The position numbers and the translations under genes are program-made. DNA of 56,856 nt from a virus (lineage: Duplodnaviria > Caudoviricetes): positions 1 through 56,856 of IMG/VR virus record IMGVR_UViG_3300029169_000003; one strand, given 5' to 3'. This document shows, one piece after another, positions 3,378-53,252 of this stretch (position 1 is its first letter; each line of letters begins with the position of its first letter). The notes below the pieces were generated by a model. The model searched no databases. It was given only the letters and a program-made list of their open reading frames with translations, and was not told the DNA's origin.

Positions 3378-3898
3378 TGAAATATGTGTTGGGATTAGAT
3401 CCAGGGACGAGAGCGATGGGGATTTCGTTAGTCAAACAAACTGGGAAGGGAAAGAAAAGTAAGATAGAATTGATGGGTGTTACCACGGTTAAACGTGTGG
3501 ACCATACGGAGGAAGGAGTTAACGTTGGAATGAAAGAAGTCGACAGTTTTTTGCGAACACACAAAGTCAAGTGGGGAGACGTTGAGATGATTATAGAATG
3601 TCCAGCACCACGTTGGTATGGTCGTAACAATTCGGTTGCACTCATCAAAATATTCTGGCAAGTTTTATATATTTGTAAATACTTCCAACGTAAAGTAGGG
3701 AACATAGTGTTGATTGATTCATTTGATTGGAATAGGAAAAGAATGCCGGGAGATAATGGAACGTTTTATTATAGTCAGTATGGTGATAAAGAAAAGAAGG
3801 AACGTTTCTTAAAACTGTTTCCGGGTATTAGTAAGGGAAACACGGACACACGGGATGCAACATTAATGTGTATTAAACATATCGAAGGGTACGAATAA
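3377..3898 (+). CDS. RuvC-like Holliday junction resolvase (RNase H fold)
   Basis: VLGLDPGT (first Asp), MIIECP (Glu), C-terminal DTRDA acidic pair. Confidence 0.8.
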   Translation: MKYVLGLDPGTRAMGISLVKQTGKGKKSKIELMGVTTVKRVDHTEEGVNVGMKEVDSFLRTHKVKWGDVEMIIECPAPRWYGRNNSVALIKIFWQVLYICKYFQRKVGNIVLIDSFDWNRKRMPGDNGTFYYSQYGDKEKKERFLKLFPGISKGNTDTRDATLMCIKHIEGYE

Positions 3899-4392
3899 TG
3901 GATAGACGAAGTTTTATATGGAAGACGGCGCAATCAACGGTAATTTTAGGAGTTGCCCCGTTCGTAGGACGGTTGGTAGACAGTACTGTTGAACTAACAC
4001 CCATCGAAATGTTTGTGAAGGGTTTGAAAGAACATGGTGAAGATTATTTAGTATTTGATCCGGATGAAAACGATTTGTTAACGGGTAAGATAGTAATGGT
4101 TGATCTGGGGTTGTTGGAAGAAACTCCTGTCTTGCGAACTCGTTTTGAATTTGTAGGGCCAGATCGAGTTATGTTTTGTAGGAATTCTGACACGTATAAG
4201 ATTGACGTTATAGGTAAATCCAATATAGATGGTATACGTATGGACGACGGGATGATTGCATTGAAAAAAATCAAACTAGATATCATGGATTACTACTTAC
4301 CAGAACGTCGAGATAATGATTACGACGTACCGGAGGGTGCACCATTATATCCGTCAACGTGGGACGATAAACTTAAACGAACAGTTTTGTAA
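3898..4392 (+). CDS. Hypothetical protein with twin-arginine-like N-terminus
   Basis: MDRRSFIWKTAQSTVILGVAP fits the RRxF-phi Tat motif plus a short hydrophobic stretch. Confidence 0.6.
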   Translation: MDRRSFIWKTAQSTVILGVAPFVGRLVDSTVELTPIEMFVKGLKEHGEDYLVFDPDENDLLTGKIVMVDLGLLEETPVLRTRFEFVGPDRVMFCRNSDTYKIDVIGKSNIDGIRMDDGMIALKKIKLDIMDYYLPERRDNDYDVPEGAPLYPSTWDDKLKRTVL

Positions 4393-9960: not shown

Positions 9961-10195
9961 AGATCGATGGGAAGAATTTACAACAGATACGGAACGATGG
10001 AATTACGTGATGTATGTACACCCGAACTTATTTACAGTCGTCCTCGACAACGACTGTACTTGGTGTCAGTTTAAGGACGACGAAGGAGACGAAGATGGGG
10101 ATATAGAATTTTTCCATTTCGACGAATTCCTTGGATGGAGCGAAGGGGTGTTTACGTTGTTACACGTATTAAACATCGACGCAGAAGGTTGTTAA
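9926..10195 (+). CDS. Hypothetical protein
   Basis: Coupled acidic ORF. Confidence 0.65.
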   Translation: MLIPESLKQKVRDRWEEFTTDTERWNYVMYVHPNLFTVVLDNDCTWCQFKDDEGDEDGDIEFFHFDEFLGWSEGVFTLLHVLNIDAEGC

Positions 10196-10207
10196 TTGTA
10201 AATAATA

Positions 10208-10280
10208 AGTGCGGTGGTGGAGCTGGCAACACGCGTGGTTTGGGACTACGAGATCGAGGGTTCGAACCCCTCCCGTGCTA
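10208..10280 (+). tRNA. tRNA-Pro(TGG), CCA not encoded
   Basis: Acceptor AGTGCGG/CCGTGCT; D arm GTG...CAC with GG; anticodon stem CGTGG/CTACG with loop TT-TGG-GA; T arm GAGGG-TTCGAAC-CCCTC. Confidence 0.85.
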
Positions 10281-10293
10281 CATAAAAAAATAT

Positions 10294-10677
10294 ATGATTA
10301 ACAAAAACAATATAGAAAAGTTTTTAGACGGTGATGCCAGAAATTGGGAAACCAATCCCGTCTGGGTTGTATTGACGGGGGAAGACTTTAATCCTCTAAA
10401 ACCATTCAAGAAAAAAGGTTTATTATTCCATCCCGTTTTAATAAAAAACAAAAGAGCAAACGAATTGTTGGGGAATATTTATCTGTCGGGAGACTCCGTA
10501 GAACTTGTAACGGATGTTGTCGAATTTGTTACGGGTGGATTGATATATACACGGAATGAGTTTGATCAAAAAACGGAATTAGGTTGGGTGAAACTAGATA
10601 GACCGTTGTATACGGATAATGGTGGAAGTTTTACAATGATACCAAACGAGAAAGGATACATTTATGTCGAACATTAA
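10294..10677 (+). CDS. Hypothetical protein (true start after the tRNA)
   Basis: In-frame ATG at 10294; the track's 5' extension reads through the tRNA. Confidence 0.65.
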   Translation: MINKNNIEKFLDGDARNWETNPVWVVLTGEDFNPLKPFKKKGLLFHPVLIKNKRANELLGNIYLSGDSVELVTDVVEFVTGGLIYTRNEFDQKTELGWVKLDRPLYTDNGGSFTMIPNEKGYIYVEH

Positions 10678-22866: not shown

Positions 22867-22879
22867 GTTTATCGTTTTA

Positions 22880-23992
22880 TTATTCTGGTAACAATGTAGA
22901 AAATTGGACATCAGGTGGAAGACGTTTGAACGCTTCTATCTTATCCGGAGTCCATGCCCTAAACGACGAATCTCCTGCATCGCGTCGTCTTTCGATCTCT
23001 GTATATATTAAATCAAGGTCGGTCGGATCCTGACCCACTATGGCTTGCGCTAACTCAGTATAAACCTCATCGGTCTGTGCCCTACGGAACGCCTCAGTAG
23101 CATTCCCTAACAATGTCGCTTCGCCTTGATCCAACTTAAGCCGTTGTGAAGACAAGTTGTCCAACAATTCTCCCGTTGGATCTAAATCTGGGTTGGAACT
23201 CAACTCTCTAATCTGTTGATCTAATACGCTTTTCTGTGCCCTACCATTTCTTAAATCGGTTAACGATTTCGCAACAAACCCTAGATCTCCTGGTTTTTTA
23301 GGAGTTTTCCCAGAGTTTGAAGTAATACGCGCCTGTCTCGCCCTAATCAATGCAGCTTCAGCTTGTACCTGTGTTGATGCAGCGTTTGATGCAGCGATAT
23401 TCGTACGTTGGAGATCTTGGTTACTATCGAACATTTGTTTAGCAACATCCAGCACACTCTCACCCTTTTCTCTTGCAGTCTTCTCCGCAGCACTAATCAA
23501 GTTCTGAAGTTGAATTTTTTGATTACGAATCTCTTGTTCGTTTGCAACTCTACTTTGTTCGGTGTTCTGTGCAACCCTTAATCCTGTCTCGCCTTCAATA
23601 TTACCACGGTTTTGTGCGTGTTGAATTAGTTCACTTGTCAACCTATCCTGCAAACCAAACGCCTGTGGTAATGCGGTGTTATTTCGTTGCCTTAAACCAT
23701 TATTTGTTGGTATTCCTGAAAACGCCTGAGATGCAGCACCACCGGCCCCCAAAACTTGCGATAACAATAACGCTTCCATCTGTTGACCAAATGTACGTTT
23801 CCCCAATTCTTCAGCAGCGGCAACACCCTCCAATCTTGAATTCGCCAACGATTGGATTGCGTCATTAACGACTGTCGGATTTTGAAGTATAGGTTGAACT
23901 AAACTTTCATCGACGGGTGTTGGTTCTGGGGTTACTTCGCGTATACGACGGTCGGCTGAACTTATAAATTCTTCTAACGGATTACTTAACAT
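22880..23992 (-). CDS. Putative internal virion/ejection protein
   Basis: Ala/Gln-rich helical composition; between the nozzle and the giant protein. Confidence 0.6.
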   Translation of the reverse strand: MLSNPLEEFISSADRRIREVTPEPTPVDESLVQPILQNPTVVNDAIQSLANSRLEGVAAAEELGKRTFGQQMEALLLSQVLGAGGAASQAFSGIPTNNGLRQRNNTALPQAFGLQDRLTSELIQHAQNRGNIEGETGLRVAQNTEQSRVANEQEIRNQKIQLQNLISAAEKTAREKGESVLDVAKQMFDSNQDLQRTNIAASNAASTQVQAEAALIRARQARITSNSGKTPKKPGDLGFVAKSLTDLRNGRAQKSVLDQQIRELSSNPDLDPTGELLDNLSSQRLKLDQGEATLLGNATEAFRRAQTDEVYTELAQAIVGQDPTDLDLIYTEIERRRDAGDSSFRAWTPDKIEAFKRLPPDVQFSTLLPE

Positions 23993-30258: not shown

Positions 30259-31464
30259 TTACGCAGGGAATACAAAGTTACGCAAACGAGCGATAGCGTA
30301 AGGGTTATGGGAAACAAAGTTTCCGAACCAATCCATACGCGTCCGACGAATGTTAGGACCTTGCAGTTCACCTAAGTCGCGAGCCGAGAATCCAGCCATC
30401 GTTCCTAAGAATTCACCAGTATCGGCACCAGGACCATCAGGATTCTGGTGGTAGACAGAAGTAAAACCATCTTCCGTGTCGTACTTGACTGCGTAGATAA
30501 CCCGTTCGTCAGCCTGACCCGAAGTATCAGCACCTTGAAGAGTTAGAGATGCAGCAGTACCATCAGAAAACTCACCACCAGTTGTCAACGTTGCAACACC
30601 AGTAGAGAAGTTAACGGATGCAATAGTATCACTATCAGTTCCGTCAGTGATCGTTTTGTTTACGTCAGCCTGTGAGAACCCACCAAAACCATTATCGGCA
30701 GCAGCTTTAGTTACAGTCGTACCAGTACCACCAACGGTTGCACCAGTCAGAACTTTATCTTCTGCAATGATATCTAAAGTTATCCAAGGTATACCGTTGA
30801 AGGTTAATACCGGACGACCAAAGCGTTCATCCATGATATACTGTGGAGTGTTTCCTGGTAAGTCGGCAAGCAACTCCATAAACTCTACAGTGGTTTTGTT
30901 ATCTGCATATATAACGTCAAAACCGTCATACTTAGTCCGAAGCAGTAAATCATAAAGTAAACCAGCAGAGAACGTTGCACCCGCTGCATCAAAGTCTTGG
31001 TTCGTAAACCCTACACTATTCCAGTAATCTACCCAATAGTCCAAACCATTCGCATGGTTATCGTAACCCATACCGCGAACATACTGTTCTTGGAAATCGA
31101 AAGCCAGCTTTTTCGCAGCGGCCATGATATCGGCGGCTCTCTGACTGTTGATGTTGGATTTGCCTAAGATCGAGATCTTTGGAGTATCTGCGTTGCGAGC
31201 TAACATCCGAGTAGGAATTGCAAGACGCGTACGCGTTCCAACACCTTCTACCAAGTCAGTCGTGGAGAACGGATCTCCAACAGACGCACCGGAAGCAACG
31301 GTTGCTTCGTAGTTAAAATCATAAGTCGTTCCTTCGAACGCCTTGAAAGGTAACTGTGCAAATAAATCACGAGCACCTTTCTTCCGAATTACTTCAACGA
31401 CACCGCGAAGTAATGCGGGTACTGTAAGTTTGTTAGCTTCTGCTAACGAATGAATTGTAGCCAT
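30259..31464 (-). CDS. Major capsid protein (HK97 fold) with ~80-aa inserted beta domain
   Basis: Follows portal and scaffold; GAGGGG RBS; own terminator; LPFKAFEG, FGRPVLTFNGIPW, TRMDWF, AIARLRNF. Confidence 0.85.
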   Translation of the reverse strand: MATIHSLAEANKLTVPALLRGVVEVIRKKGARDLFAQLPFKAFEGTTYDFNYEATVASGASVGDPFSTTDLVEGVGTRTRLAIPTRMLARNADTPKISILGKSNINSQRAADIMAAAKKLAFDFQEQYVRGMGYDNHANGLDYWVDYWNSVGFTNQDFDAAGATFSAGLLYDLLLRTKYDGFDVIYADNKTTVEFMELLADLPGNTPQYIMDERFGRPVLTFNGIPWITLDIIAEDKVLTGATVGGTGTTVTKAAADNGFGGFSQADVNKTITDGTDSDTIASVNFSTGVATLTTGGEFSDGTAASLTLQGADTSGQADERVIYAVKYDTEDGFTSVYHQNPDGPGADTGEFLGTMAGFSARDLGELQGPNIRRTRMDWFGNFVSHNPYAIARLRNFVFPA

Positions 31465-31491: not shown

Positions 31492-32589
31492 TTATGATAA
31501 ACCAGCCATAATCATATCTTTGGGATTCTTCCCTTCTAACTGGTCTTTTGGTTTTTGTTGAGGTGCTGGCGTAACGGGAGCCTTCTTAACGTTCTTGACT
31601 TTCTTAACACGTTCTATAACCTTTTTAGCAGGTTGCTTGTGTGTTACCTTTGTCTGATCTTTCCCTTCACTGTCCTCACCTTGGATTCTTAACCGAAGTC
31701 CTTCTAAATACTGTCGACCTGCATCTTTCCCAAAAACTTGAGTTATCAAACTGGCCGTATCCATGGGTGTATACCCACCTTCATTTGTTTCAGACAAAAC
31801 AGTCCTTAACATGTCCTTTTGTTCAAGATTCCTAATACCAAAAAATGACGGTACTGCGATCTCTTTCACAAAATTGTCTGCATCAGTTTTTAAGTCATCT
31901 CGTTTTTTGCTGTTTTCTAACGCGACCTTCTCTGCATCACTCTTCGCTTTCTCTCGGTCAGTCTCAGCTTTAACGCGTGCCCTTAAAAAACTTCTAAACT
32001 TTTCATCATCTTCAAAATCTTCTTCTGTCTTTCCCCTGAACTCTTCTGGGAGCAACGCCTGTATTGCTGCTTCCTCCATCACACTTTCAGGAATAGTGTC
32101 AGTATAAACTTGAAGTTTCTGCGTCACACTAACAAGACTTTCTTTGTGATCTTTAATATCACCTTCCATCTTCTTAATGTACTCATCTTTCGCTTCTACC
32201 CCCTTAAACAACTCTTCTTCTGTTTTGTAAACCGAATGGTTGCCAACATAGAAAAATTCTTTATTTGGTTCTTCATCAACTTCCTCTTCAACGACTTCTG
32301 TATCATCGTCTTCGATTTCATCAACTATCTCCTCGGACTCGTCACCTTCAACAACTTCGATGATTTCTACATCTTCATCATCAACTTCTTCTTCATCGGC
32401 AAACAGCGCTTCTAAACTGTCGTCATCGACGGGGTCAGACTCATCCGTTACTACTACTTCTTCGATTTCCGTATCCAGAGTAAGCTGGTCGGACTGTTCA
32501 GACTCATTTAACGCATCTGCTAAAAAACTCTGAGGGTCGAGGATAACACTTGTGGTATTACTCTCTGTATCTGTTACATCTTTTTTCAT
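31492..32589 (-). CDS. Capsid scaffolding protein
   Basis: Very acidic N-half, coiled coil, basic tail; between portal and capsid genes. Confidence 0.75.
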   Translation of the reverse strand: MKKDVTDTESNTTSVILDPQSFLADALNESEQSDQLTLDTEIEEVVVTDESDPVDDDSLEALFADEEEVDDEDVEIIEVVEGDESEEIVDEIEDDDTEVVEEEVDEEPNKEFFYVGNHSVYKTEEELFKGVEAKDEYIKKMEGDIKDHKESLVSVTQKLQVYTDTIPESVMEEAAIQALLPEEFRGKTEEDFEDDEKFRSFLRARVKAETDREKAKSDAEKVALENSKKRDDLKTDADNFVKEIAVPSFFGIRNLEQKDMLRTVLSETNEGGYTPMDTASLITQVFGKDAGRQYLEGLRLRIQGEDSEGKDQTKVTHKQPAKKVIERVKKVKNVKKAPVTPAPQQKPKDQLEGKNPKDMIMAGLS

Positions 32590-36806: not shown

Positions 36807-38198
36807 TTACCATGCTTCCACGATGTTTACCCCATAACTCCCCATGTCTGCCGTGGTGATCAACGTATCAGTTCCAGGTTTTTTAACTTGTGGTTCGTAA
36901 TACACATCATATACCCCTTCTTCGTTGTACGTCATGGGATTACCACCACGATATAGACGTCCGTTGGATGGGGAATATGTCGCTTTCTCTCCACCCCAAC
37001 CATAAGATTGTTTAACGTCGGCGTTTCCATCTTCGTCTTGGATAATCACCTTACCGCCGCTTCCTGCTTGATCATACAATATTTTATCAGTTCTTTCATG
37101 GTGAATGAATGCAGGGCCGAACGAACTTCCGAACTGCGAATCAATCAACGTTGTCTGTGCTCCATCATCCGCTTCAAACAATCGTACCTGAAAATATGTA
37201 GAACTACACCCGTACACTTGTTGAGTCTCTTCGCGACATACGGCAATTCTATCTGTTTGAGCTAAAAAATATCCAAGATTAGTTACAGTGTCGTCCAAAT
37301 TCAACCTAAACATGTCTGTACTTGTACTACCGAACGCATACACAAAGAATATGTATCCACCATAAGTCCCGGTCTCCATGACATCAAATCGAGGTATTTC
37401 GTTGGGTAATGTCGGAAACGTATAATATTCGGAATGAACGCCAGTCTTTAGATCGTATACATATAATTCGTTCCCTTCATACAACAAGTATAGTTTAAAT
37501 CTAGGACGATCTAATACCATCCACTTAAGCTCTGTACCGTCTCCCCAGAAGTCTGCAAAATCAAACAATTCAGTAATCGTTCCATCTGGATCAATTTGAT
37601 ATATACGTTCCGATTCGAACACGTCTCCTTCTCCAATAGTAACATCCGTACCACCACCAAGATTACGACCGTTAGGCGATGTTGCCATGAATAACGTTTC
37701 ATCTTCAAAATCAAATTCCATTGCCTCAACACCGGCAAAGGTAAACGACGGCGTTGTGCTAACATACCCCTGATTCACGGTCGGTTCGACACCAACAAAC
37801 GTGAACGATGGTGTTACACCTTGTAATGTTCCTCTCGTTGCTTCAATACCAATAAACGTAAACGACGGAGTTGAACCTATCCCATCAACAACGGGAAACG
37901 GTGGAGTATTTCTTATCTCCAACTTTTTTACGTTAAACGTTTTCTCTGATATAACGGTACCATCCGTACTCTGGAATTGATAGGAATATTTCCCGAATTT
38001 AGCCGGATAGTATTCGTATTGGTAAACACCTTTACTACTACGCGTTGCGGAGAACGGACCAACGGTAACACGTTCAGGTGTTAAAATATACACCACGACA
38101 CCACCGTCGACATTGACTGGTACTCTTTCACCATCTTTATATTCAGATTCCAGAATTACCTTTTCCGTTTCGTTAACAACTCGTCCTCCTACACTCAT
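36807..38198 (-). CDS. Virion fibre/decoration protein: Ig-like domain, TPSF repeats, C-terminal beta-propeller-like region
   Basis: Three TPSFTFxG(V/I)E repeats; IYQIDPDGTIT, LYVYDLKTG and MFRLNLDDTVT blades. Confidence 0.65.
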   Translation of the reverse strand: MSVGGRVVNETEKVILESEYKDGERVPVNVDGGVVVYILTPERVTVGPFSATRSSKGVYQYEYYPAKFGKYSYQFQSTDGTVISEKTFNVKKLEIRNTPPFPVVDGIGSTPSFTFIGIEATRGTLQGVTPSFTFVGVEPTVNQGYVSTTPSFTFAGVEAMEFDFEDETLFMATSPNGRNLGGGTDVTIGEGDVFESERIYQIDPDGTITELFDFADFWGDGTELKWMVLDRPRFKLYLLYEGNELYVYDLKTGVHSEYYTFPTLPNEIPRFDVMETGTYGGYIFFVYAFGSTSTDMFRLNLDDTVTNLGYFLAQTDRIAVCREETQQVYGCSSTYFQVRLFEADDGAQTTLIDSQFGSSFGPAFIHHERTDKILYDQAGSGGKVIIQDEDGNADVKQSYGWGGEKATYSPSNGRLYRGGNPMTYNEEGVYDVYYEPQVKKPGTDTLITTADMGSYGVNIVEAW

Positions 38199-38200
38199 CT

Positions 38201-41200
38201 TTATATCACCGTTCTCGATTTTCTCACAACAAACTTGTGTTCTTCCAAGACGTCTAACGCAACGTTTTGGAAACGTATATAATATTCTCCATCAACATCA
38301 AATGATGTTATATAGTCGTACACTCCAACAACATCATTAGTCATCTCAAATGGTCCTAACACTGTCTTATCTGGTTTTTTAATGAAAACAAATCCGGCAC
38401 CAGGAACGTTAGACTCATCTCCTGTTTTGTTGCTTAACGTCTTTACTCTCACCCTAATGTTTTCACCAACATGGTTTATTCCATCGAACACGACTGGAGT
38501 TACAGTAATCTTCGCAGCAAACTCGCTATAACTTTCAAGTTTAACAGAGGTAGGAGTACCAAACGATTCTTCATCTCCGTTGTTTGCCACAAACGTTATG
38601 ATTGGTGTGGATCCAACTCCGACTAATACACTGTTAGATATTTCAGACGTAAACGTTATCGTTGGGGTCAAACCCAAACCAACAACGACCCCACTACTTA
38701 CAACACCATCAACACCAACAAATGTTATGATCGGATTGATACCTGTTTGTGTTATTACTCCAAGATCTCCGACTCCGTCTTCACTGGTAAAACTAAACGA
38801 CGGTGTAAAACTGTAACCGTAGTCTGCCGTAGATGTGGGTATGCCCAAAACACCATTAAAACTAAATGATGGTGTTATACCATTAAATAACGCAGACCCG
38901 TTCACCCCACGGAATACGATATTGGGAGGCAATCCAGGATTATCCTGAATAATGATTAACGAATCTTGTGTACTACTTGTTGGGGTATCGTCGTTCCAAG
39001 TAAAGTTGTCGAATGTTAATAATGAAGAAGCTATACCAGATGGTACAGGAAGGGCTTGAAAAACCATTTCAAACAATCCACCACTACTAGATATTGGTGA
39101 AGCTGACGCCCACGCAACTACGATCTCTCCCGGTGTTGTTAAATTAACCGTTAAAGATTCTCCTGCCAACACCCCGATAGGGTTCACGGACAACGCCGAA
39201 ACCACTGTAGCTTCGTATAAAATCTTTGTTTGGAAGGATACACATCCTTGTCCTGTCGTATCGCTAGTCGTCACGTCTACCGAAAATATATCATTTTCAT
39301 AATGATTGTTCGGAAATTCGATACTGACATTTACGTCCGTTAGAAGTCCGACAGCAACCGGTAATCTAAATGATATTTCCGCCGTTTGTCCAAACCCTGA
39401 AACAATGTTTGATATGCCGTCTTCAGATGTAAACGAGATAACACCCGTTGTTGAAACTTTAGTTATCGATCCAAGAGTTATGGAGGGAGTTACTCCAACA
39501 AATGGTACTTCTGCCGTACCACCAACAACCGTTAAGTCGTCAAGTACAAACGTTCCGTCTTCACTACTAAAACTAAACGATGGCGTTGTAGCCGTTTCGG
39601 AAAATGAAATAAAATCAAAAAACCTAACAGTTGTTGGTTCAACTATATCTGTAATGTATGACGTTAGATTACTTCCGTCATAATCAGACTTATGTACAAT
39701 GTCTGTTGTATGGTCCGTGAAAAACAATTCTTCCGTACTTTCCTTAAAAGTAATGAAAGCCATTTCCGACCCACCAGTAAACACGGAGATATTGTTTGTA
39801 TTATCGTTATCTCTCCTACCAACGTTTCCTGTAGAAAAAGAAGTATACCAAAAATATGTACCATCAGAGACAACCGATACTGCATTAGTTTCCGTCAAAA
39901 GTAACGTATCGTTTGTACCATCACTATCGATTCTCCGATGTCCGTCGTCTGTACTCCAATAAATCTTATCTTCAGATTCGGAATAAAATATTCTTAATCC
40001 TGGCGTTGTATCGTTTCGTAGTGTTACCGGGTTATCGAAACCTGGGAGGTCTCGTTGTATTAAATCTGCATCATTAAATCCCTGATATAATATTTTATTA
40101 GTTGATGGTATTATTTCAACACCAATAACAACACTAATACCTGTCCCCACGGTTGAAATATTTTCACCGTATTTATCAAACTTAACAATGTTGTTTAACG
40201 CCGCAGAACATACATAAAATTCTTCATCGATAGTGTGGATAGCATGGGACGTGATTTCATCGTTGTTTATATATATCACTTCAGACGTATCATCGTCTAA
40301 ATCAATATACCTCAAACTTCCGTCACTCGTCGACGCCAACGTTAAACCTTTAAAAACTAAATCTGTCTTATCTAAAAATAACCCGACGACTCCGTCATAT
40401 CCAACACCAACGGTATCTATATCTAAATTATACGTACCAGCAATACATGAAACACTAATACCAAATGTACCAGAAGTGTGAGTGGTGTCCGTCATCTCTG
40501 CGTTCCAAACAGACGGTTCGTTATCTGTGTCTTCCCATATTCTCGCATACAACGTTGTACCTATCATTCGAATTCGAATTCGATAATAGGTGTCTGCGAG
40601 TCTAGTAAATGTTGTCCCCGTGTCTTTTAACGTGTAAGATCCTGAGTTTGCTTCGTATAGGTTAAAACCCGTATTGGAATTTAGAACAACGAGATATCCT
40701 GATTCTGTTCCTTCTCCACCAGACGCCCTCACCCAAAAACTATATTCAACATCGGTTGAAACATCGTCCTGTTTAAAACGATATGTGATATCTATATCAT
40801 CTTTATTTATAATATCGTTTTCAAGAACGACTCGGCGTGTGGTTGTTGCGACCGTTTGTAATTGAAATGATTTTCCGTCCGTAGCACCAACATCCGTTAC
40901 AACTTGTTGTGTTGTTTCTGAAGACGGGTTAGACAGAAAACTCCAATCTGGATGTTCTGTACTTACCGTACGGTCCCCAAAAGTCTCAAAATATCTTTCA
41001 GAATTATCGCCATTACCAGTCACGCCGGAAAAACTGAATGTCGGAGTCGTACCCGTTCCTACCGTTGGAGTAATCGGTATAACACCGACACCATCCACAC
41101 CCGTTAAAACAAACGACGGTGTTCTGGAAATGATATCAATACTACCACTATCTGAAGTGTTTGAAGGTGTACCCTCATTATATGTAACGTTCTCTAACGT

Positions 41201-41527
41201 TAAAACAGACGAACCTATCCCTACACTATCACCTTGAATCGTGAACAGTGTGCCAGAACCTATCAACGCAGAAACACCGGCCCACGATATTCGTATCGTA
41301 TCACCGGTTCCGCCAAAATCTGTATTAACTGTGAAACTTAACCCAGATGTGATATCTTGAGGGGTTGCCCCTGTTATGTCGACAACTGTATCGTCATATT
41401 GTATATCTATAGTGAACGACACAACTCCTTGACCCGTTAGGTCATTGACCGTAATAGGAATCGAGAAGTTGGTTGCAAGTTCATCCTGGGTAATGTTGTC
41501 GGCAATTGTCGTAGTGACAGCCATCAA
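38201..41527 (-). CDS. Multidomain virion protein: cohesin-like 1, lectin-like jelly roll, YWTD-like propeller, TPSF repeats, cohesin-like 2, Ig-like C-terminus
   Basis: Two internally homologous domains FSIPITVNDLTGQGVVSF..YD..IRISWAG..GTLF..YNEGTP and FSVDVTTSDTTGQGCVSF..YE..IVVAWAS..GGLF..WNDDTP; KIYWST and LFFTD...KSDYDGSN. Confidence 0.75.
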   Translation of the reverse strand: MMAVTTTIADNITQDELATNFSIPITVNDLTGQGVVSFTIDIQYDDTVVDITGATPQDITSGLSFTVNTDFGGTGDTIRISWAGVSALIGSGTLFTIQGDSVGIGSSVLTLENVTYNEGTPSNTSDSGSIDIISRTPSFVLTGVDGVGVIPITPTVGTGTTPTFSFSGVTGNGDNSERYFETFGDRTVSTEHPDWSFLSNPSSETTQQVVTDVGATDGKSFQLQTVATTTRRVVLENDIINKDDIDITYRFKQDDVSTDVEYSFWVRASGGEGTESGYLVVLNSNTGFNLYEANSGSYTLKDTGTTFTRLADTYYRIRIRMIGTTLYARIWEDTDNEPSVWNAEMTDTTHTSGTFGISVSCIAGTYNLDIDTVGVGYDGVVGLFLDKTDLVFKGLTLASTSDGSLRYIDLDDDTSEVIYINNDEITSHAIHTIDEEFYVCSAALNNIVKFDKYGENISTVGTGISVVIGVEIIPSTNKILYQGFNDADLIQRDLPGFDNPVTLRNDTTPGLRIFYSESEDKIYWSTDDGHRRIDSDGTNDTLLLTETNAVSVVSDGTYFWYTSFSTGNVGRRDNDNTNNISVFTGGSEMAFITFKESTEELFFTDHTTDIVHKSDYDGSNLTSYITDIVEPTTVRFFDFISFSETATTPSFSFSSEDGTFVLDDLTVVGGTAEVPFVGVTPSITLGSITKVSTTGVISFTSEDGISNIVSGFGQTAEISFRLPVAVGLLTDVNVSIEFPNNHYENDIFSVDVTTSDTTGQGCVSFQTKILYEATVVSALSVNPIGVLAGESLTVNLTTPGEIVVAWASASPISSSGGLFEMVFQALPVPSGIASSLLTFDNFTWNDDTPTSSTQDSLIIIQDNPGLPPNIVFRGVNGSALFNGITPSFSFNGVLGIPTSTADYGYSFTPSFSFTSEDGVGDLGVITQTGINPIITFVGVDGVVSSGVVVGLGLTPTITFTSEISNSVLVGVGSTPIITFVANNGDEESFGTPTSVKLESYSEFAAKITVTPVVFDGINHVGENIRVRVKTLSNKTGDESNVPGAGFVFIKKPDKTVLGPFEMTNDVVGVYDYITSFDVDGEYYIRFQNVALDVLEEHKFVVRKSRTVI

Positions 41528-42019: not shown

Positions 42020-42397
42020 TTAAGGTTTAAGGAACTTATACGTAATACTCTTACTAATCGGTACATGTGTATCTGTACCTTTCATATCGATATATAATGG
42101 TTGAAGTCGTGCATTCGTTTGGTAGTCTGTAGTCCAAACGTTGTCAGCCAATCTCACAGTTTGGTTAACTGGAAAATTAATAACAATCGTTGTTCCGTTT
42201 CTCGTTATCCTAACATCCGACACGATAGTCGGAGTTGTTGTCCCGCTAACCCAACTTCCACCAGTATTTTTAAATTCTATAACACCCTGAGTTATAAACG
42301 CGACATCTAAATCATCTGTAGTGTATTGTGAAACGTTTTTCCTTAAAAATGTATCGAAGTAAGTATTGTCGTAACTATTCAAAAAAAACTCCGGCAC
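42020..42397 (-). CDS. Hypothetical protein
   Basis: Overlaps the end of the LamG gene. Confidence 0.55.
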   Translation of the reverse strand: MPEFFLNSYDNTYFDTFLRKNVSQYTTDDLDVAFITQGVIEFKNTGGSWVSGTTTPTIVSDVRITRNGTTIVINFPVNQTVRLADNVWTTDYQTNARLQPLYIDMKGTDTHVPISKSITYKFLKP

Positions 42398-43955
42398 CGG
42401 AATTATAATAAAACGCTTCCTCTGACGGTGTTAACAATCCTCCACGACGGAAACCCATACCATCAAATACCGCATCTGCATAATTTGCCGTTGCGATGCC
42501 GCCAATACGTAAAGGTATTGTGTTAGGAAGAAGAACATCTCCGCTTGTCGTTAAGGTTTCGGCAGTACCACCATTTATAGATAAACTTATTAGGTCGTTG
42601 TCTTTATCGTGTTTGAACACATAGAAGTACCATGTAGAGATTGATAATGTATCACCATGTGTTAATATTTTGGCACCCCCATCTGTGTTTATTCTGAACC
42701 GTAGTTTATCAGATGATAGTACATGAAGGTGATAGGAACTTGTCGACTGTCCCGTGATACCATGGTTTTGACCCACACTGTTTAACTTAAACCAACCCCA
42801 ACCGCAAAAATCTTCATCTTCTATATTTTTGTAAATTAGAGATTCACTCGTTAACAATTGGGAGGATGCAGTAACAAAGTTCGCACCGTTCCCGTTTTTA
42901 CCTGTAACGAACGTAACACCGTTAACATTAGTTAATGGGGCCAACCCGTTCTCTTCCGTCAAATCGGAAAGGTTGTACTGAGTTTCAGCACCCTTCTGAT
43001 TAAATAGTTCTGCATACGTCGTACCAAACCCGTCGTTGTAGAAATCATTTATCTCGTCTTCCGTCAACACTCTATCCCACATTGCAAAATTATCTACGCG
43101 AGAATCAGATGATGTTAGATTATACGTGGCACCAATAATAAAATCTTGAGATGGTTGAATGTCGGCAGCAGACAATGCAGAAATGCTAGATGAACCAATA
43201 CTTGTAAACCCGTTTTTATAACAGGTCATATTACCGGATCTATCGTATGTTATGACTAAACAGCCCCACTCATTGTCCGTCAAACTGGATGCATCCGTAC
43301 TAAGTTTGATCTGTGTTGTATCGTCTTGGAACAATAACTCCCATTTATCTGTCTGTGGTGTTATCTTAAACCCTTCTTCGCCACCGCCAAAGTTTCCACC
43401 AAAGGTCACTAATCCGCTTCCGCTAGAATTTGTTGATTCGATGTAATAGAAAAACGCTACAGTCATGTCGGACAACCCTGGACTTAAGATGGGTGCCGCG
43501 TTTGCATTCAATACCCTGTAATAATTTCCACCGCTTGTCGTGTAGATTGCATCTCCGTTATTTCCCGTAGAATGGGTTGGAGTTCCTACTGCAACCAAAT
43601 CTAACCCATTCGTGTGGGAATCGGTATTATCTTCACCTTCATAAAACACCAACATGTCAGTCATTAGGGAACTAGGTATGTTAGATACCGGGACTGTACC
43701 ACTACCGTCTACACCACTCATACTAACAGATGGAGTAGACCCTACACCACTAATAGTTCCTAACACAATGGAAGGCGCACCACCTACAAACGCCATAGAA
43801 GACGTTGCAGACGTTTCACTAATACTTCCGAAAGTTGTTGACGGGATAACACCCATAAAGTCTATACTTGGCGTAACACCACGAAAGACAGGTTCTCCAC
43901 CGAATAGAGCTGTACCTGTCTTACCCGTCATACCCATACTCAAAGTTAAAGCCAT
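42375..43955 (-). CDS. Virion protein with two LamG/concanavalin-like domains and N-terminal TPS repeats
   Basis: DNEWGCLVITYDR...VDNFAMWDRVLTEDEI..FYNDG; STWYFYVFKHD...LTPSEEAFYYNSG. Confidence 0.8.
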   Translation of the reverse strand: MALTLSMGMTGKTGTALFGGEPVFRGVTPSIDFMGVIPSTTFGSISETSATSSMAFVGGAPSIVLGTISGVGSTPSVSMSGVDGSGTVPVSNIPSSLMTDMLVFYEGEDNTDSHTNGLDLVAVGTPTHSTGNNGDAIYTTSGGNYYRVLNANAAPILSPGLSDMTVAFFYYIESTNSSGSGLVTFGGNFGGGEEGFKITPQTDKWELLFQDDTTQIKLSTDASSLTDNEWGCLVITYDRSGNMTCYKNGFTSIGSSSISALSAADIQPSQDFIIGATYNLTSSDSRVDNFAMWDRVLTEDEINDFYNDGFGTTYAELFNQKGAETQYNLSDLTEENGLAPLTNVNGVTFVTGKNGNGANFVTASSQLLTSESLIYKNIEDEDFCGWGWFKLNSVGQNHGITGQSTSSYHLHVLSSDKLRFRINTDGGAKILTHGDTLSISTWYFYVFKHDKDNDLISLSINGGTAETLTTSGDVLLPNTIPLRIGGIATANYADAVFDGMGFRRGGLLTPSEEAFYYNSGAGVFFE

Positions 43956-44792: not shown

Positions 44793-44877
44793 AACCTGTA
44801 ATATTGTTGATAGTTAGGTTATTAACGAAATCTTCACAAACAATGTTCCTCATTATGTATTATATTTAAAATAAAAA

Positions 44878-45210
44878 ATGAAATTTATACTTTCCATATC
44901 GAATGGTTTCGCTTCGTTGTATAAACACGAATACGGGTTTTTGCTTTGGAGGGATGATACTGGGTCAGAAAGAAAAACTATGTTAGAATGGACTATAGAT
45001 GAATCTACGGCAAAGCTATACAACTATCAGGATAACACAAAGTCGTGGAAGGAAGGTGATGTAACTATGAGGTTTAAGAGTAAGGAGGACGTAATCACCG
45101 CAGCAAAACGTATGTGTTTTATATTGGGGTTTAAATATCGTAATGAAAAGCCTTACCTCGAATACAATGGTGAAGTGTTATGGAAATACGGTAACGTAAC
45201 GACCAGATAG
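44878..45210 (+). CDS. Hypothetical protein, lone opposite-strand gene
   Basis: ATG after an AT-rich gap; followed by a long inverted repeat. Confidence 0.65.
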   Translation: MKFILSISNGFASLYKHEYGFLLWRDDTGSERKTMLEWTIDESTAKLYNYQDNTKSWKEGDVTMRFKSKEDVITAAKRMCFILGFKYRNEKPYLEYNGEVLWKYGNVTTR

Positions 45211-45214
45211 TATT

Positions 45215-45265
45215 GTATACGTATACGTTGACTGGAAGTAATAATGTGTCAACGTATACGTATAC
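45215..45265. terminator. 18-bp perfect inverted repeat between convergent genes
   Basis: GTATACGTATACGTTGAC / GTCAACGTATACGTATAC, 15-nt loop. Confidence 0.7.
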
Positions 45266-45267
45266 TT

Positions 45268-45612
45268 TTAAACTTTGAACATTGAATCTACAAACACGTC
45301 CATCTCCGAACTACTTAACTCTTCTCCTTTCTCCAACTTGTTCAACCCCAACGTGTAGTAATCCGGTTCTTCGTTGCCGAAACTATACGTACTTCCTTTG
45401 AACGTTTTAAATTGAAGTTTTTCTATAATCCTGGGACACCCTCGACTTATTATCCCCTCTATAACGTGTCGTTGTAGGAGAGGAACTGTTAATTTGTCGA
45501 CATGGATAGAGGAAGGGAGTACCAGTTCAGGTATCTTTATATATGGCGATAAAACCGTTCCGGCCAAACCTCCGGCCAATGTTTTAAAGAAACGCCGTCT
45601 ACTTAAACTCAT
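45268..45612 (-). CDS. Tat-signal protein containing a copy of the major capsid N-terminal segment
   Basis: SRRRFFKTLAGGLAG; 20/42 ungapped identity to capsid KLTVP...FNYE by hand alignment. Confidence 0.75.
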   Translation of the reverse strand: MSLSRRRFFKTLAGGLAGTVLSPYIKIPELVLPSSIHVDKLTVPLLQRHVIEGIISRGCPRIIEKLQFKTFKGSTYSFGNEEPDYYTLGLNKLEKGEELSSSEMDVFVDSMFKV

Positions 45613-46013
45613 GTCACCGTTATATTTGTTTTTTGGATATCGCTATATAGACATTGAGGTTCATCATGTTTATTATCGTCTAAGATTTCCATGAACTTTT
45701 CAATAGTCGTTTCGTCACTTAAAACATCTTTTATTTCTTTGTATGTTATAATGGGTGTTCCAACCTTCATGTCCCATTTTGGGTACTTCGGATTGAACGT
45801 ACCAAGTACGATCTTTTGCTGTTCTTCTAACTGTTCTGGTTTTGGCGGCTTATCAAACAGCGTTATGTGAATAAGATAGTCTACCCTCATATCACGGTTT
45901 AAATAATTATCGACTCCGAACATTTCAAAACTTTCATATAAATTCTCCAACCCTTTGTTTACGTACCGATAATTTACATTATATGGAGTTTCAACCTGGA
46001 CTATATGTTTCAT
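45609..46013 (-). CDS. Hypothetical protein
   Basis: Coupled ORF. Confidence 0.65.
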   Translation of the reverse strand: MKHIVQVETPYNVNYRYVNKGLENLYESFEMFGVDNYLNRDMRVDYLIHITLFDKPPKPEQLEEQQKIVLGTFNPKYPKWDMKVGTPIITYKEIKDVLSDETTIEKFMEILDDNKHDEPQCLYSDIQKTNITVT

Positions 46014-47093: not shown

Positions 47094-47458
47094 CTTTTTA
47101 CGTTACGTACACCATACAAACAAGTACAACAATCTCTCCCAACGTCGTCATCGTGTTTCTTATGATGATAATTATGAAATGTCTTAAAATCTTTATATTG
47201 GTGAGAGACAGTCTCCGTCTTACTAACTTCGCCGGATATGGTTTGTCGTACCACATAATATTCGTACGTAGTGTATAACGGTGTGGTGTCAACAACAGTA
47301 TAATTCAACCGTACAAAGTCTCCACCACTCCTCCAACTACAATGATTGTATGGAGTAACAAAAGTCATTAACAACACCAATATTATAAACATGATAATAA
47401 CAATATTAATAATATTAAGTAAAAGATATATTTGGGGTCGGAGGTATTCATAAAACAA
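47087..47458 (-). CDS. Membrane-anchored hypothetical protein
   Basis: N-terminal hydrophobic segment; His/Cys-rich tail (HNYHH..H, CCTC). Confidence 0.5.
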   Translation of the reverse strand: MFYEYLRPQIYLLLNIINIVIIMFIILVLLMTFVTPYNHCSWRSGGDFVRLNYTVVDTTPLYTTYEYYVVRQTISGEVSKTETVSHQYKDFKTFHNYHHKKHDDDVGRDCCTCLYGVRNVKSC

Positions 47459-48457: not shown

Positions 48458-48717
48458 TTTAATATTTCTCCTAATCCATTACATATTGGACATTCGTACG
48501 TCATATCACTCTCTATATAAACGGTTCCGTCATCACATTCATCACACTTCACATACACATCAATCATAACTCCATAATGAATTACTAAAAAATCATCTAA
48601 TGCTTCATCGTCTGACTTATATTTACCAAATTGTCTTTGATGTTTGATTGCGTCTTCTTCAGTTATATGGATAGTTGAAGTTCCTCCCGTAATATGGGGT
48701 TCCATAAATTCGATCAT
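48454..48717 (-). CDS. Small protein with C-terminal Zn finger
   Basis: CDECDDG...CPICNGLG. Confidence 0.65.
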   Translation of the reverse strand: MIEFMEPHITGGTSTIHITEEDAIKHQRQFGKYKSDDEALDDFLVIHYGVMIDVYVKCDECDDGTVYIESDMTYECPICNGLGEILK

Positions 48718-49463
48718 ACTACCACCACTGATTTAACAATTTTCGTAGTGTTACCTATAACTCTTAAAATATACATACCTGGACTCAACGTATCAACATT
48801 GAAGTGTAATCGATTCGTGTTGACCAATACTCCGTTGTATAAATTTAATACTTCCCGTCCCAAATTATCGTACAGTATAATCGTTATTACTTCCGGATTC
48901 GGTATTTGAATATCCAAATTAACAATATTATTTAATACGGGATTTGGGAAAATTGTTACACTACCGGATTTAGTGTATACTGGTTTTTCGTTTGGGATCG
49001 GAGACACTATCGTTCCCGACTTGGTAACTATTGTCGGTTGCGATATCTCGTTAAATTTAAACGTCCCTACAACATCAAAATCGCTTAAAATGTTTTTAGT
49101 ACGTAACGTTATGTTCCCCATAGTGCTATCACCTGACAGTGTTGACAACATCTTTAACGGATTTACACCGGCAGTCGCAAAGTTCAAAACCCCGCTATCA
49201 ACACCATTTTCATTCGTCAAAACTAAATGTCCCGTGTCGAAAAAATGGGAGGCGGCATTAAACTCGACAAAGTCAAACAACAAACTATCCCAAACTATAC
49301 TCCCCTCAACCGCCCGTATTTCCTCGTTGTATATTCCATTATAATCCACATAATACGTAAACGTTGTATCGGAATTCGTCTCTACCTGTCCATGGACATT
49401 GTTTATTGTAACAAAAAACAACAACATAAATGAAATAACAACATACCAGTATTTTATTAACAT
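48714..49463 (-). CDS. Secreted protein: Sec signal, cohesin-like domain, type IX secretion (Por) C-terminal sorting domain
   Basis: Signal ending VHG-Q; IVWDSLLFDF...GVLNFATAGVNPL...FKFNE; CTD IFPNPV...LYDNLGREV...LSPGMYILRV...KSVVVV. Confidence 0.85.
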   Translation of the reverse strand: MLIKYWYVVISFMLLFFVTINNVHGQVETNSDTTFTYYVDYNGIYNEEIRAVEGSIVWDSLLFDFVEFNAASHFFDTGHLVLTNENGVDSGVLNFATAGVNPLKMLSTLSGDSTMGNITLRTKNILSDFDVVGTFKFNEISQPTIVTKSGTIVSPIPNEKPVYTKSGSVTIFPNPVLNNIVNLDIQIPNPEVITIILYDNLGREVLNLYNGVLVNTNRLHFNVDTLSPGMYILRVIGNTTKIVKSVVVV

Positions 49464-51035: not shown

Positions 51036-53252
51036 ATGAAACTTAAACAAACATTATTTACATTATTATTATTGTTAATCCCATTATTAACGGTTCATTC
51101 ACAAACAGTAACATATCCCGTGGAAGTAGTTGGTGCAACACTAACTACCGATACACGTACCGTCACTGTTCCTGACGTAACCGGTATCACCCGTCTATGG
51201 ATGAAGGTACATAACTTGTCGTACGACGGTAAGATGTCCGTACGGGTCAATTCTGGGACATGGTTTACACCAGAAAACGCCAACACCGAAGTTGCCGATC
51301 CTGAATATAGATATGGTGGCATCGGTGGTGCGTGGGATGTGATTCGGATCGAAGTCCCCCTCTCAGGTTTCACAGATGGAAGTAACACTATCGAATGGAG
51401 ATTTAATGGCACGGATGGATTGTCGTCTGGTTTTCGGGTATTGGACTGGAAGTTCATGACCAGCGATAGTACAGAAGTACCGTTTACTGAAACGATGGTA
51501 GAAGATGATCCGGACTTGTGGACACCTTTTACTACTCATGTCGACAGTTTGAGCGAGGGGGCAACATTATTCACCACCGGAACGATCACAACACCGTTGG
51601 GAAATCCGTCGTCTGTGAGTTGTGCCGACTGTCATAGTAATGGAGGGGAAGATTTAAAGTACTTTAATATGAGTAATAATTCTATCGTCCAACGGTCCAT
51701 ACAACACGGGTTAACGGTGAGTCAGGGGAGGAATATTGCATCATGGATCCGGAACTTGGATTTACCAAATCCTGGACGTGTATGGAATCCCCCGTTCCAA
51801 CCAGGACCAGGACAAGATTTGGTAACACCCGAAGACTGGAGTGCCGGTACTGGGTTAACGTATGTTTTGGATACTGACCAACAAATGAAAGATTACTTAT
51901 TTCCAGACGGAATCAACGACAACGGGTGGATCGATACCGATAGTTTACTTAACATGAGGGAACTCCCGACGAATATGATGATGCCCGACTGGTTTAATTG
52001 GTTGCCACGAGTTCACCCGATAGACTCATGGGGTACAACGTTTACCAACAGTCCTGCATGGGACGAATACATTAATGAGTGGCCGAGTTTAATATCACTT
52101 GGATCTTCTGTATACCTCGCCAAATCTCGTATACCTCGTCAGTTTGAGGGGATGAATTCTGCGGTTGATGACTTTAGGGAGGATACACCACCCGAATCTG
52201 GTTGGACCGATAAAGATCAAGCCGATGCAAATTTATCCCTACAGTTGTGGAACATTACTAAACATTGGGAAATAATGAGACAGTTGGAGTTGGAAGGATT
52301 AGTGTCCACATTTTACCCCACGTCTAAAGAAAAATATTCATGGTTTGGACAGGATAGAGGAATATTCAATACAGCTCCACACATCTCAGGCGTCGGGGGA
52401 CAAAGTAATTCGTACGACGGGTTTATTGAGGCCAAATATCGTTCGGCCCAGTGGTATCACCTCCAAATCATCGTTAACAATGGGAATTGCGATCCATTAA
52501 CCATTAAACCTGTAGATTGGAAATACACTTATGGTCATACGACCGACATCACTAATAATGGTGGAGGACCTGTCGGTTCACTACTTATCTCAGAGTTTGT
52601 GAAGGGTATGGAAGTTATGGATTGCGCCAATAGTGTCGGAGAACGAGGTTGGTATGCACGCCACGTCAACCCATACTGGTGGAGACAACTCAACGACGAA
52701 GGACTCACACAAACTATCCATTTCGACGGATGGAGCGATGTTGATTTAAACAACCTACGAACTACGATGTTCAGGAGTTTTATGGAAGCTAACGTAAGTT
52801 ATCCGGTGTCGTCATGGGAACGGGGTGACGACAATCACATGTTAGAGGAAGACGATTACATAACATCTCCGGACAGTTCATGGGGGAGTAGTATTCGTTT
52901 TGACTATGCCTCGTCTCTCCATACGTTATTACAGTTGAGTGATGTGAGAGGAGTACCCACTACTGCAATCGATTCGCTAGCGCGTTGGGCCGAGGAAGCA
53001 TGGCCCCTAAACAACTTCGAAGAGTTTTTTATTACAACAACGTACGGAGATGTGAGCGGGAATGGAAGTGTGACGTCTTTTGATGCTTCCCAAATACTCC
53101 AATACAATTCTGGATTAATCACTTTAACGGGAGAACAGTTGATTGCCGCAGATGTGAGTGGTAATGGGAGTGTATCGTCGTATGATGCCTCTTTAGTCCT
53201 ACAGTTTATTGCTGAATTAATCACATGTTTTCCGGTGGAAAATGGTTGTTAA
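51036..53252 (+). CDS. Secreted protein with a c-type heme motif (CADCH) and a C-terminal dockerin
   Basis: Signal ending VHS-Q; CADCH at 51621-51635; duplicated Ca-loop GDVSGNGSVTSFDASQILQY...ADVSGNGSVSSYDASLVLQF at ~53043-53240. Confidence 0.88.
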   Translation: MKLKQTLFTLLLLLIPLLTVHSQTVTYPVEVVGATLTTDTRTVTVPDVTGITRLWMKVHNLSYDGKMSVRVNSGTWFTPENANTEVADPEYRYGGIGGAWDVIRIEVPLSGFTDGSNTIEWRFNGTDGLSSGFRVLDWKFMTSDSTEVPFTETMVEDDPDLWTPFTTHVDSLSEGATLFTTGTITTPLGNPSSVSCADCHSNGGEDLKYFNMSNNSIVQRSIQHGLTVSQGRNIASWIRNLDLPNPGRVWNPPFQPGPGQDLVTPEDWSAGTGLTYVLDTDQQMKDYLFPDGINDNGWIDTDSLLNMRELPTNMMMPDWFNWLPRVHPIDSWGTTFTNSPAWDEYINEWPSLISLGSSVYLAKSRIPRQFEGMNSAVDDFREDTPPESGWTDKDQADANLSLQLWNITKHWEIMRQLELEGLVSTFYPTSKEKYSWFGQDRGIFNTAPHISGVGGQSNSYDGFIEAKYRSAQWYHLQIIVNNGNCDPLTIKPVDWKYTYGHTTDITNNGGGPVGSLLISEFVKGMEVMDCANSVGERGWYARHVNPYWWRQLNDEGLTQTIHFDGWSDVDLNNLRTTMFRSFMEANVSYPVSSWERGDDNHMLEEDDYITSPDSSWGSSIRFDYASSLHTLLQLSDVRGVPTTAIDSLARWAEEAWPLNNFEEFFITTTYGDVSGNGSVTSFDASQILQYNSGLITLTGEQLIAADVSGNGSVSSYDASLVLQFIAELITCFPVENGC

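Follow-up and report, generated by a model that had tools for sequence, protein, structure and literature searches.

Read from its sequence, P0001 is a real accessory gene with an intact reading frame, carried by an uncultured tailed phage of Bacteroidota. The mini-protein it encodes consists of a leader of the twin-arginine (Tat) type, an anciently duplicated copy of the N-terminal arm (N-arm) of the phage's own major capsid protein and an unrelated helical tail. It is considered highly probable that this architecture is correct and that it is under selection. A previous sequence-only reading of the same DNA had proposed that P0001 joins a leader to a copy of the capsid N-terminus, and this architectural view is supported by the present analysis; a second gene of the same design, P0018, had been missed. 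P0018 carries two other pieces of the capsid protein behind a leader of the same type, and its presence indicates that the design represents a small gene family in this genome rather than a one-off.

The window analysed here is the whole stretch of 56,856 nucleotides, which corresponds to an entire, linear IMG/VR record with a CheckV-estimated completeness of 52%. Its annotated phage genes include those for a portal protein, the large terminase and a virion structural protein, and a protein of 3243 amino acids matches 'internal virion protein'. Further genes encode SSB, a RuvC-like protein, a dNMP kinase, an HD-domain protein and a beta-helix protein, the N-terminus of which resembles a signal peptide when read by eye; one tRNA-Pro is located in the window, and the scaffold is placed at 31492-32589. 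The phage is remote from cultured phages. Among 50,697 phage records, the best matches of its capsid protein, which belong to SSU5-like and other phages, are 26-35% identical, and a search of a protein collection revealed uncultured relatives with capsids of 39-72% identity. Since the phage encodes a protein with a T9SS C-terminal sorting domain (Table 1), its sequence points to a host within the Bacteroidota. The T9SS-sorted protein, the beta-helix protein and the 3243-amino-acid internal virion protein may be additional means by which this phage targets the cell envelope. One further sequencing run from the same study also contains the phage; the three pieces compared show 0 differences, and the second run therefore provides no polymorphism that could be used for testing selection.

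Table 1. Features of the window discussed in the text, with their coordinates, strand and the evidence on which they were assigned.
Feature	Position	Strand	Evidence
P0018, 164 aa, twin-arginine-type leader and two capsid pieces	3898..4392	+	Leader scan, BLASTP, hhalign, capsid profile
P0018 residues 69-87, copy of the capsid C-terminal motif (capsid 363-381)	4102..4158	+	BLASTP 8/19 identical, E 0.093; capsid-profile domain at 362-380
P0018 residues 92-139, copy of capsid 87-134 (strand and long spine helix)	4171..4314	+	BLASTP E 1e-10; hhalign probability 96.6%, E 6e-10; profile 31.4 bits
P0002, 401 aa, gene for the major capsid protein from which the pieces were copied	30259..31464	-	phrog_212 major head protein, E 9.7e-18
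Capsid residues 9-53 (N-arm helix and next strand), counterpart of the P0001 piece	31306..31440	-	BLASTP, capsid profile
Perfect inverted repeat, 18 nt, loop 15 nt	45215..45265	.	Between the convergent stops of P0001 and ORF 44878-45210
P0001, 114-aa mini-protein gene	45268..45612	-	ORF list and translation; ATG start, intact
P0001 C-terminal tail, residues 82-114: acidic, predicted helical, not capsid-like	45271..45369	-	Shuffles; AF2 helices 84-94, 101-112
P0001 capsid N-arm copy, residues 37-81	45370..45504	-	Capsid profile, BLASTP, shuffles
P0001 leader, residues 1-33: SRRRFFK, 15-residue uncharged h-region, linker with motif S-P-Y-I	45514..45612	-	Pfam TAT_signal residues 3-21, regex scan, AF2 helix 5-20, alignment to P0004 leader
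Upstream ORF, 134 aa, function unknown; stop overlaps P0001 start	45609..46013	-	Sequence
249-aa protein with T9SS C-terminal sorting domain	48714..49463	-	Pfam Por_Secre_tail E 2e-9, 38 bits, above cut-off of 27

P0001 is the final gene in a minus-strand run of small ORFs of unknown function. Its start codon overlaps the stop codon of the upstream ORF in the sequence ATGA, and this ORF has no family match in Pfam, NCBIfam or PADLOC. An inverted repeat starts three bases past the P0001 stop codon; the ORF at 44878-45210 is encoded on the plus strand, converges with P0001 and has its stop beyond the repeat, which is a candidate two-way terminator. P0018 is located between the RuvC-like gene (ORF 3377-3898) and SSB; in the sequence TAATG, its start codon overlaps with the stop codon of the former. 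Both mini-genes thus overlap the stop of the preceding gene, which suggests coupled translation. As judged from their neighbours, they appear to occupy early or accessory positions, P0001 at the end of a small-ORF run and P0018 next to RuvC-like and SSB genes. The distance between P0001 and the capsid gene is ~13.8 kb, in line with the earlier description of P0001 as lying about 14 kb away in an accessory region.

The capsid protein P0002 was identified by its match to the phrog_212 major head proteins and also matches the NCBIfam model MCP_gp7_epsi_15 (NF045672) with an E-value of 2.4e-12, although the match stays short of the model cut-off. Translation of P0001 and its ungapped alignment to capsid residues 12-53 confirmed the reported identity of 20/42 residues, and BLASTP aligned the two proteins with 42 bits and an E-value of 5e-10. 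The significance of this pair had been left to be established: the Smith-Waterman score of 96 contrasts with a mean of 29 for shuffled sequences (sd 4.3, maximum 62-63) and was reached by 0/5000 shuffles, irrespective of which of the two sequences was shuffled. A profile built from 13 capsids matches P0001 residues 37-81 over its positions 9-53 with 37.3 bits and an E-value of 1e-13 when P0001 is searched as a single sequence, and of 5e-11 when the profile is run over all frames of the window. The tail of P0001 gave no comparable signal. Its best capsid-profile score was reached by 745/2000 shuffles, and a capsid-like remnant in this region was rejected; a match of the tail to the RiPP leader model TIGR04149 (E 0.059, 13.3 bits versus a cut-off of 25) was taken as chance.

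The leader and the capsid-derived piece were then considered separately across the whole window, which contains 564 stop-to-stop frames of at least 40 amino acids. A leader scan (regex and hydropathy) required, close to a start codon, two arginines, then two hydrophobic residues and then an uncharged stretch; it was passed by 2/564 frames, P0001 and P0018. The capsid profile likewise recovered, besides the capsid protein itself, only P0018 (E 4.7e-11) and P0001, the next frame having an E-value of 1.6. The frames bearing the leader are thus the frames resembling the capsid, which indicates that leader and capsid pieces belong together; by arithmetic on the 564 frames, the chance of such a coincidence is ~1 in 158,766. 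When 18 large ORFs were compared with the 546 small frames, no other fragment pair was found, save for a repeat artefact at the start of the window.

P0018 is a mosaic, since its two capsid pieces stand in reverse order compared with the capsid protein. The longer piece, which contains the spine helix, is the better match (Table 1). For the region which contains the shorter, C-terminal motif (residues 30-91), 1/2000 shuffles reaches the capsid-profile score, and residues 30-68 have no capsid-profile domain match. A capsid-like remnant in the tail of P0018 was considered and rejected, as its score is reached by 477/2000 shuffles. P0001 and P0018 gave no BLASTP alignment with each other.

Both mini-proteins show significant homology to capsid segments, but neither contains the full HK97 fold with its A and P domains, E-loop, N-arm and capacity to form capsomers: the capsid profile covers only positions 9-53 in P0001 and only positions 362-380 and 87-134 in P0018. 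The copied pieces sit in better-conserved stretches of the capsid, which contain invariant and near-invariant alignment columns. In the capsid model, helices are predicted at residues 16-29 and 107-130. A Foldseek search with this model returned only weak HK97-type matches (encapsulins and phage capsids, best E 3.7e-3), and comparing the capsid profile with PDB sequences yielded no usable match. Because the N-terminal 118 residues of the model have pLDDT values below 50, the structural roles assigned to the copied pieces are derived from secondary structure together with what is generally known about the fold. An AF2 model of P0001, for which the alignment included capsid N-termini, has a pLDDT of 58 and a pTM of 0.29 and consists of separate helices at residues 5-20, 43-56, 60-65, 84-94 and 101-112, and the Atlas models of the mini-proteins have pLDDT values of 0.44 and 0.34. 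These models suggest that the mini-proteins have no compact fold and are not autonomous capsid domains. Complex prediction for the capsid protein and P0001 residues 31-114 gave an ipSAE of 0.00 in both runs, which were done without controls, a result that speaks neither for nor against binding.

An exhaustive HMMER search of 1.84 billion representatives identified a sole relative of P0001, the 98-amino-acid protein P0004 (E 5.4e-6), which is encoded on another contig of 1239 bases. The two proteins align from the RR motif through the N-arm copy with 28/74 identical residues (38%; pairwise E 2e-15), and the capsid-like part of P0004 matches the capsid profile with 35.3 bits. Its tail is unlike that of P0001, being short and Cys-rich. 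As the alignment spans both leader and N-arm, the leader-plus-N-arm layout has a single origin and is conserved; the sequence-only reading had named the recurrence of this architecture in relatives as a way of checking its proposal. The leader of P0004 can also be aligned weakly to that of P0018 (9/23 identical, E 0.01). A word-based protein search of 5.8 billion clusters with P0001 retrieved only P0001 itself among 9 candidates, and only P0001 and P0004 were found among 150 candidates when a profile of the two was used.

At the nucleotide level, tblastn and blastn searches of the 50,697 phage records with P0001, its 3-kb region and P0018 were empty or nearly so. The same was true of locus scans for P0004 in viral, metagenome and genome contigs, for the capsid protein and capsid profile in viral and genome contigs, and for P0018 in viral contigs. 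A metagenome scan with the capsid profile identified four short loci (L003-L006), which hold capsid N-termini only, and no ORF with an RR leader was present among their 30, 42, 73 and 98 frames. The protein collection contains seven capsid relatives with 62-72% identity on contigs of 4-88 kb. With P0004 as the only homologue of P0001 found in the exhaustive search despite these seven capsid relatives, the distribution of the gene looks sporadic, on what is indirect evidence.

The DNA of the copied segment is identical to the capsid gene at 66/126 positions, with 24/42, 27/42 and 15/42 identities at codon positions 1, 2 and 3, respectively. Third-position identity is therefore 36%, compared with 29% expected between random capsid codons. 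For the P0001 copy and the capsid, dN is 0.50, and dS is saturated and not computable. The duplication of the N-arm must thus be old, because silent sites have been randomised while 20/42 residues were kept. The retained amino-acid similarity argues against neutral decay, the outcome that would have spoken against the earlier proposal, although a comparison of one pair cannot apportion the constraint between mini-gene and capsid. The N-arm copies of P0001 and P0004 share 18/41 residues with each other and 20-23/41 with capsid N-termini. Concerted evolution with the phage's own capsid was considered and not concluded, as these identities equally fit slowly evolving capsids and fast-evolving mini-proteins.

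The assignment of the leader to the Tat pathway, which had been made in the sequence-only reading, stands in part. In P0001, the motif SRRRFFK at residues 4-10 and the 15 uncharged residues that follow are present; however, the only Pfam match of the protein, TAT_signal (PF10518), has an E-value of 0.032 and a score of 14.6 bits, which is below the cut-off of 22.7, and TIGR01409 gave no match at E <= 1. The motif agrees with the twin-arginine consensus S/T-R-R-x-F-L-K, and the 15-residue h-region falls within the ~12-20 uncharged, weakly hydrophobic residues expected; P0004 and P0018 likewise have RR with two hydrophobic residues behind it. RR is invariant in all three leaders, each of which continues with two hydrophobic residues, a Lys, ~15 uncharged residues rich in Gly/Ala/Ser/Thr and then the motif [S/A]-P-[Y/H/F]-[I/V]. 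P0004 and P0018 have no Pfam match even at E <= 10, and no canonical AxA-type signal-peptidase site was seen by eye in the three leaders. Among the neighbours of P0001 in the Atlas language model, which serve as leads only, are the Fe-hydrogenase small subunit, TAT_signal-only proteins and the Rieske Tat-signal domain (scores 0.82-0.88); those of both mini-proteins score 0.77-0.90 overall, and the nearest cluster to P0001 is a family of viral hypothetical proteins of 98 amino acids. The Rieske anchor PF10399 appears solely as an Atlas neighbour (scores 0.82 and 0.77), without a Pfam match and with an h-region of only 15 residues in the mini-protein, which by its length seems short for a stable anchor. 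'Tat-type leader' would therefore be the best description of these sequences, as distinct from proven membership.

The leader could instead be a generic N-terminal membrane anchor, a Sec-type signal with an incidental RR or a tag for some other machinery, an idea that is compatible with the other readings and would leave a capsid mimic at the membrane unchanged. The sub-threshold Pfam score and the missing TIGR01409 match fit this idea, as does the additional motif shared by the leaders after the h-region, which a generic Tat signal does not need. It is nevertheless judged unlikely, because the RR is invariant in three leaders and is followed in each by two hydrophobic residues and Lys. Moreover, short h-regions rich in Gly/Ala/Ser/Thr are typical of Tat and not of Sec signals, and the Atlas neighbours, again as leads only, are Tat-signal proteins.

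According to a review, the Tat system tolerates unstructured hydrophilic passengers of 100-120 amino acids, and a short hydrophobic stretch within an unstructured passenger halts export (PMC6708511). The N-arm copy of P0001 contains short hydrophobic stretches; export of the mini-protein is thus possible, but not assured.

The preferred explanation, which is put forward tentatively as a real possibility, is that the mini-proteins are capsid mimics acting at the membrane or in the periplasm. The leader would target the mini-protein to the inner membrane, where the Tat receptor is located, and would probably take it through this membrane; the mini-protein may stay tethered there, because no canonical AxA site was seen. 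The passenger would serve as a peptide-like mimic of capsid elements, namely the N-arm and the P-domain strands with the spine helix, and could compete at the envelope for a partner that normally recognises these elements. The favoured partner would be a component of incoming related phages, for example ejected internal virion proteins that dock on the inner face of the capsid, and superinfecting kin would thereby be excluded, or sensed. Next in preference comes a host sensor that is associated with the envelope and detects the capsid protein. The superinfection reading accounts for the presence of a leader, for genes placed early and for sequence taken from the phage itself; in this specific form, however, it is itself rather improbable. 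All capsid partners known to us, that is scaffold, capsid neighbours and cytoplasmic immune sensors, are cytoplasmic, which counts against an action at the envelope.

Alternatively, the mini-proteins might work in the cytoplasm as immune decoys: a capsid-like peptide made early would occupy a host capsid sensor of the CapRel, Lit/Gol or PifA type without triggering it, and the leader would only hold the peptide at the membrane or serve its later disposal. The early or accessory positions of both genes would be expected of such a decoy, and so would their sporadic distribution and fast divergence and the origin of the copied pieces from better-conserved capsid stretches. A Tat-type leader, however, would take the mini-protein out of the very compartment in which the known sensors work, and a copy of the epitope might trigger a sensor as readily as block it. 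The PADLOC-DB 2.0 profiles of defence and counter-defence families gave no match to P0001, P0018 or P0004 at E <= 0.1, and none to the neighbours of the mini-proteins. Furthermore, we know of no capsid sensor in this host, which also counts against a decoy. For these reasons the idea is regarded as doubtful.

It was also considered that the mini-proteins are assembly modulators or dominant-negative fragments. The N-arm copy would bind scaffold or capsid neighbours and the P0018 pieces would bind capsomer contacts. Such binding would adjust how the phage's own heads assemble at the membrane, or would poison head assembly in related competitors, much like the assembly blockers Tab and Tai. The copied elements are capsid contact elements, including the N-arm helix (16-29) and the spine helix (107-130) of the model, and in P22-type phages the N-arm docks the scaffold, which counts in favour of this role. 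Defence by blocking virion assembly also has precedent in the published descriptions available in part (PMC10884400, PMC11364771). Such a role would, however, leave the leader unexplained, and the genes are placed with early and replication genes outside the head module. In addition, and as indirect evidence, P0004 is the only homologue found in the exhaustive protein search despite seven capsid relatives at 62-72% identity, and a fragment directed against kin would strike the phage's own capsid too; an assembly role is thus judged distinctly unlikely. That the two genes are decaying leftovers of partial capsid-gene duplications without present function is very improbable, since the tiny size of the family, the lack of a confident fold and the want of polymorphism or expression evidence (the other run being identical) are outweighed by the fact that both ORFs are intact despite saturated synonymous sites, that both starts overlap the stop of the preceding gene, suggesting coupled translation, that one leader type is present on both fragments and on no other frame of the window, and that P0004 keeps the whole layout, with 38% of the 74 aligned residues identical.

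Should the leader function as its sequence suggests, phages would be directing parts of a structural protein that is strictly cytoplasmic towards the cell envelope, and they would join the users of the Tat pathway. We know of no current model, be it of phage assembly, of exclusion or of immune evasion, that predicts such a behaviour. The partner of the mimic, whether an incoming virion protein, a sensor of the host or the scaffold of the phage itself, would then define a new level at which phages interact with one another or with their hosts. It is conceivable, though improbable on present grounds, that many phage lineages share an undescribed device in which Tat-type leaders carry short mimics of the phages' own virion proteins to or beyond the inner membrane. 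There, the mimics would capture components ejected by superinfecting kin, leading to exclusion or sensing, or, through Tat 'hitchhiking', they would remove from the cytoplasm those host immune proteins that sense capsids and are bound to them; in the present phage, two paralogues would display different capsid faces. The two paralogues would offer different capsid surfaces as baits, the genes are small and the leader comes with the classical RR-to-KK control, which makes the proposal directly testable.

A search of full-text literature found no description of a phage gene in which an export leader is fused to part of the phage's own capsid protein, and the design appears to lie outside any described family found. 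The leaders resemble Tat signal peptides (PF10518, TIGR01409, PF10399 and the Fe-hydrogenase small subunit) in the arrangement S-R-R-x-F-F-K, a weakly hydrophobic, Gly/Ala-rich stretch of 15 residues and then Pro. They differ from these signals in that the mini-protein is phage-encoded and scores below both curated cut-offs, and the passenger is a fragment of a cytoplasmic virion protein, unlike the cofactor enzymes among Tat substrates. Rieske anchors, which remain uncleaved, have no obvious signal-peptidase site, and none was seen by eye in the mini-protein leaders; a Rieske-type anchor is longer than the mini-protein h-region. In the available text of a 2026 review of Tat evolution, the word 'phage' occurs 4 times, none of them concerning phage-encoded Tat substrates (PMC13673990). 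With regard to the passenger, the closest known proteins are the HK97-fold capsids of the SSU5/epsilon15 gp7-like group (phrog_212, NF045672): P0001 residues 37-81 are homologous to their N-arm, and P0018 carries their C-terminal motif and their strand-plus-spine-helix segment. In contrast to these capsids, the mini-proteins keep only 45 to 67 of ~400 residues, which are out of order in P0018, and they thus cannot form the fold or a shell; conversely, every capsid of the aligned set lacks the leader.

Two known systems come close in their use of virion proteins. Tab of phage JBD26 and the Tai systems are, to our knowledge, neither copies of their targets nor carriers of an export leader. In the parts of their descriptions that are available, they resemble the mini-proteins in being small accessory proteins of mobile elements aimed at the virion proteins of related phages, and they are set apart by acting on tails (PMC10884400, PMC11364771). 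The likeness of the mini-proteins to the second system lies in the shortness of the capsid stretch involved. In the Lit/EF-Tu exclusion, the Gol peptide is sufficient for recognition by a host factor, and this peptide is a short stretch inside the N-terminal third of T4 gp23, a major capsid protein. Gol, however, lies within the capsid protein and activates a protease of the host, whereas in the present phage the capsid stretch has a gene of its own and is tagged with a leader.

Several secreted or surface proteins appear to be encoded by the phage, judging by their domains and sorting signals: a protein of 738 amino acids, one of 650 amino acids, and the protein encoded at 48714-49463 (minus strand), which carries a C-terminal domain for type IX secretion (T9SS) sorting. 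In addition to its dockerin domain, the 738-residue protein has a weak match to a carbohydrate-binding module (CBM)-like domain, and the N-terminus of the 650-residue protein looks like a signal peptide when judged by eye.

Features of the phage sequence in window coordinates
Feature	Position	Strand	Description
19-nt tandem repeat	1-91		4.8 copies, all perfect
650-aa protein	5796-7748	+	Right-handed beta-helix / NosD repeats
tRNA-Pro	10208-10281	+	Anticodon TGG; early region
3243-aa protein	13180-22911	-	Single ORF; part matches phrog_6651
Large putative tail/fibre protein, first	38201-41527	-	
Large putative tail/fibre protein, second	36807-38198	-	
Large putative tail/fibre protein, third	42375-43955	-	
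738-aa protein	51036-53252	+	Dockerin type I domain, E 2.2e-10

Among the putative virion proteins, the 3243-residue protein matches phrog_6651, annotated as 'internal virion protein', over residues 2568-3039 (E 3.3e-15), and no family was found for the rest of its length. The second putative tail or fibre protein matches the C-terminal end of the first (E 2.9e-5), and the third matches a virion structural protein family; short repeated segments are common to all three. A listed ORF of 180 amino acids (10135-10677) encloses the tRNA-Pro gene and is therefore probably not a gene.

The 19-nt unit at the window start, which we take to match a common random-amplification (SISPA-type) primer, also forms a loose contig end at 30331 in X2, a second sequencing run of the same study. 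Bases 1-91 of the window probably represent concatenated primer and not phage DNA. The X2 contigs are interrupted at window positions 44820-45203 and 47140-47254, on both sides of the neighbourhood of P0001, the mini-protein with the capsid N-arm copy; outside these two breaks, they are identical to the window. One possible cause is assembly trouble at repeats, e.g., the hairpin downstream of P0001.

The tails of P0001 (45271-45369, minus strand) and of P0004 (residues 79-98), the one relative found among 1.84 billion protein representatives, are unlike each other, the latter being cysteine-rich. It is conceivable that a peptide-like payload lies behind the capsid piece. In P0001, the tail shows a weak similarity to the leader peptide of an rSAM-modified peptide family from Bacteroidota (TIGR04149, E 0.059, below the cut-off), a likeness that is probably due to chance.
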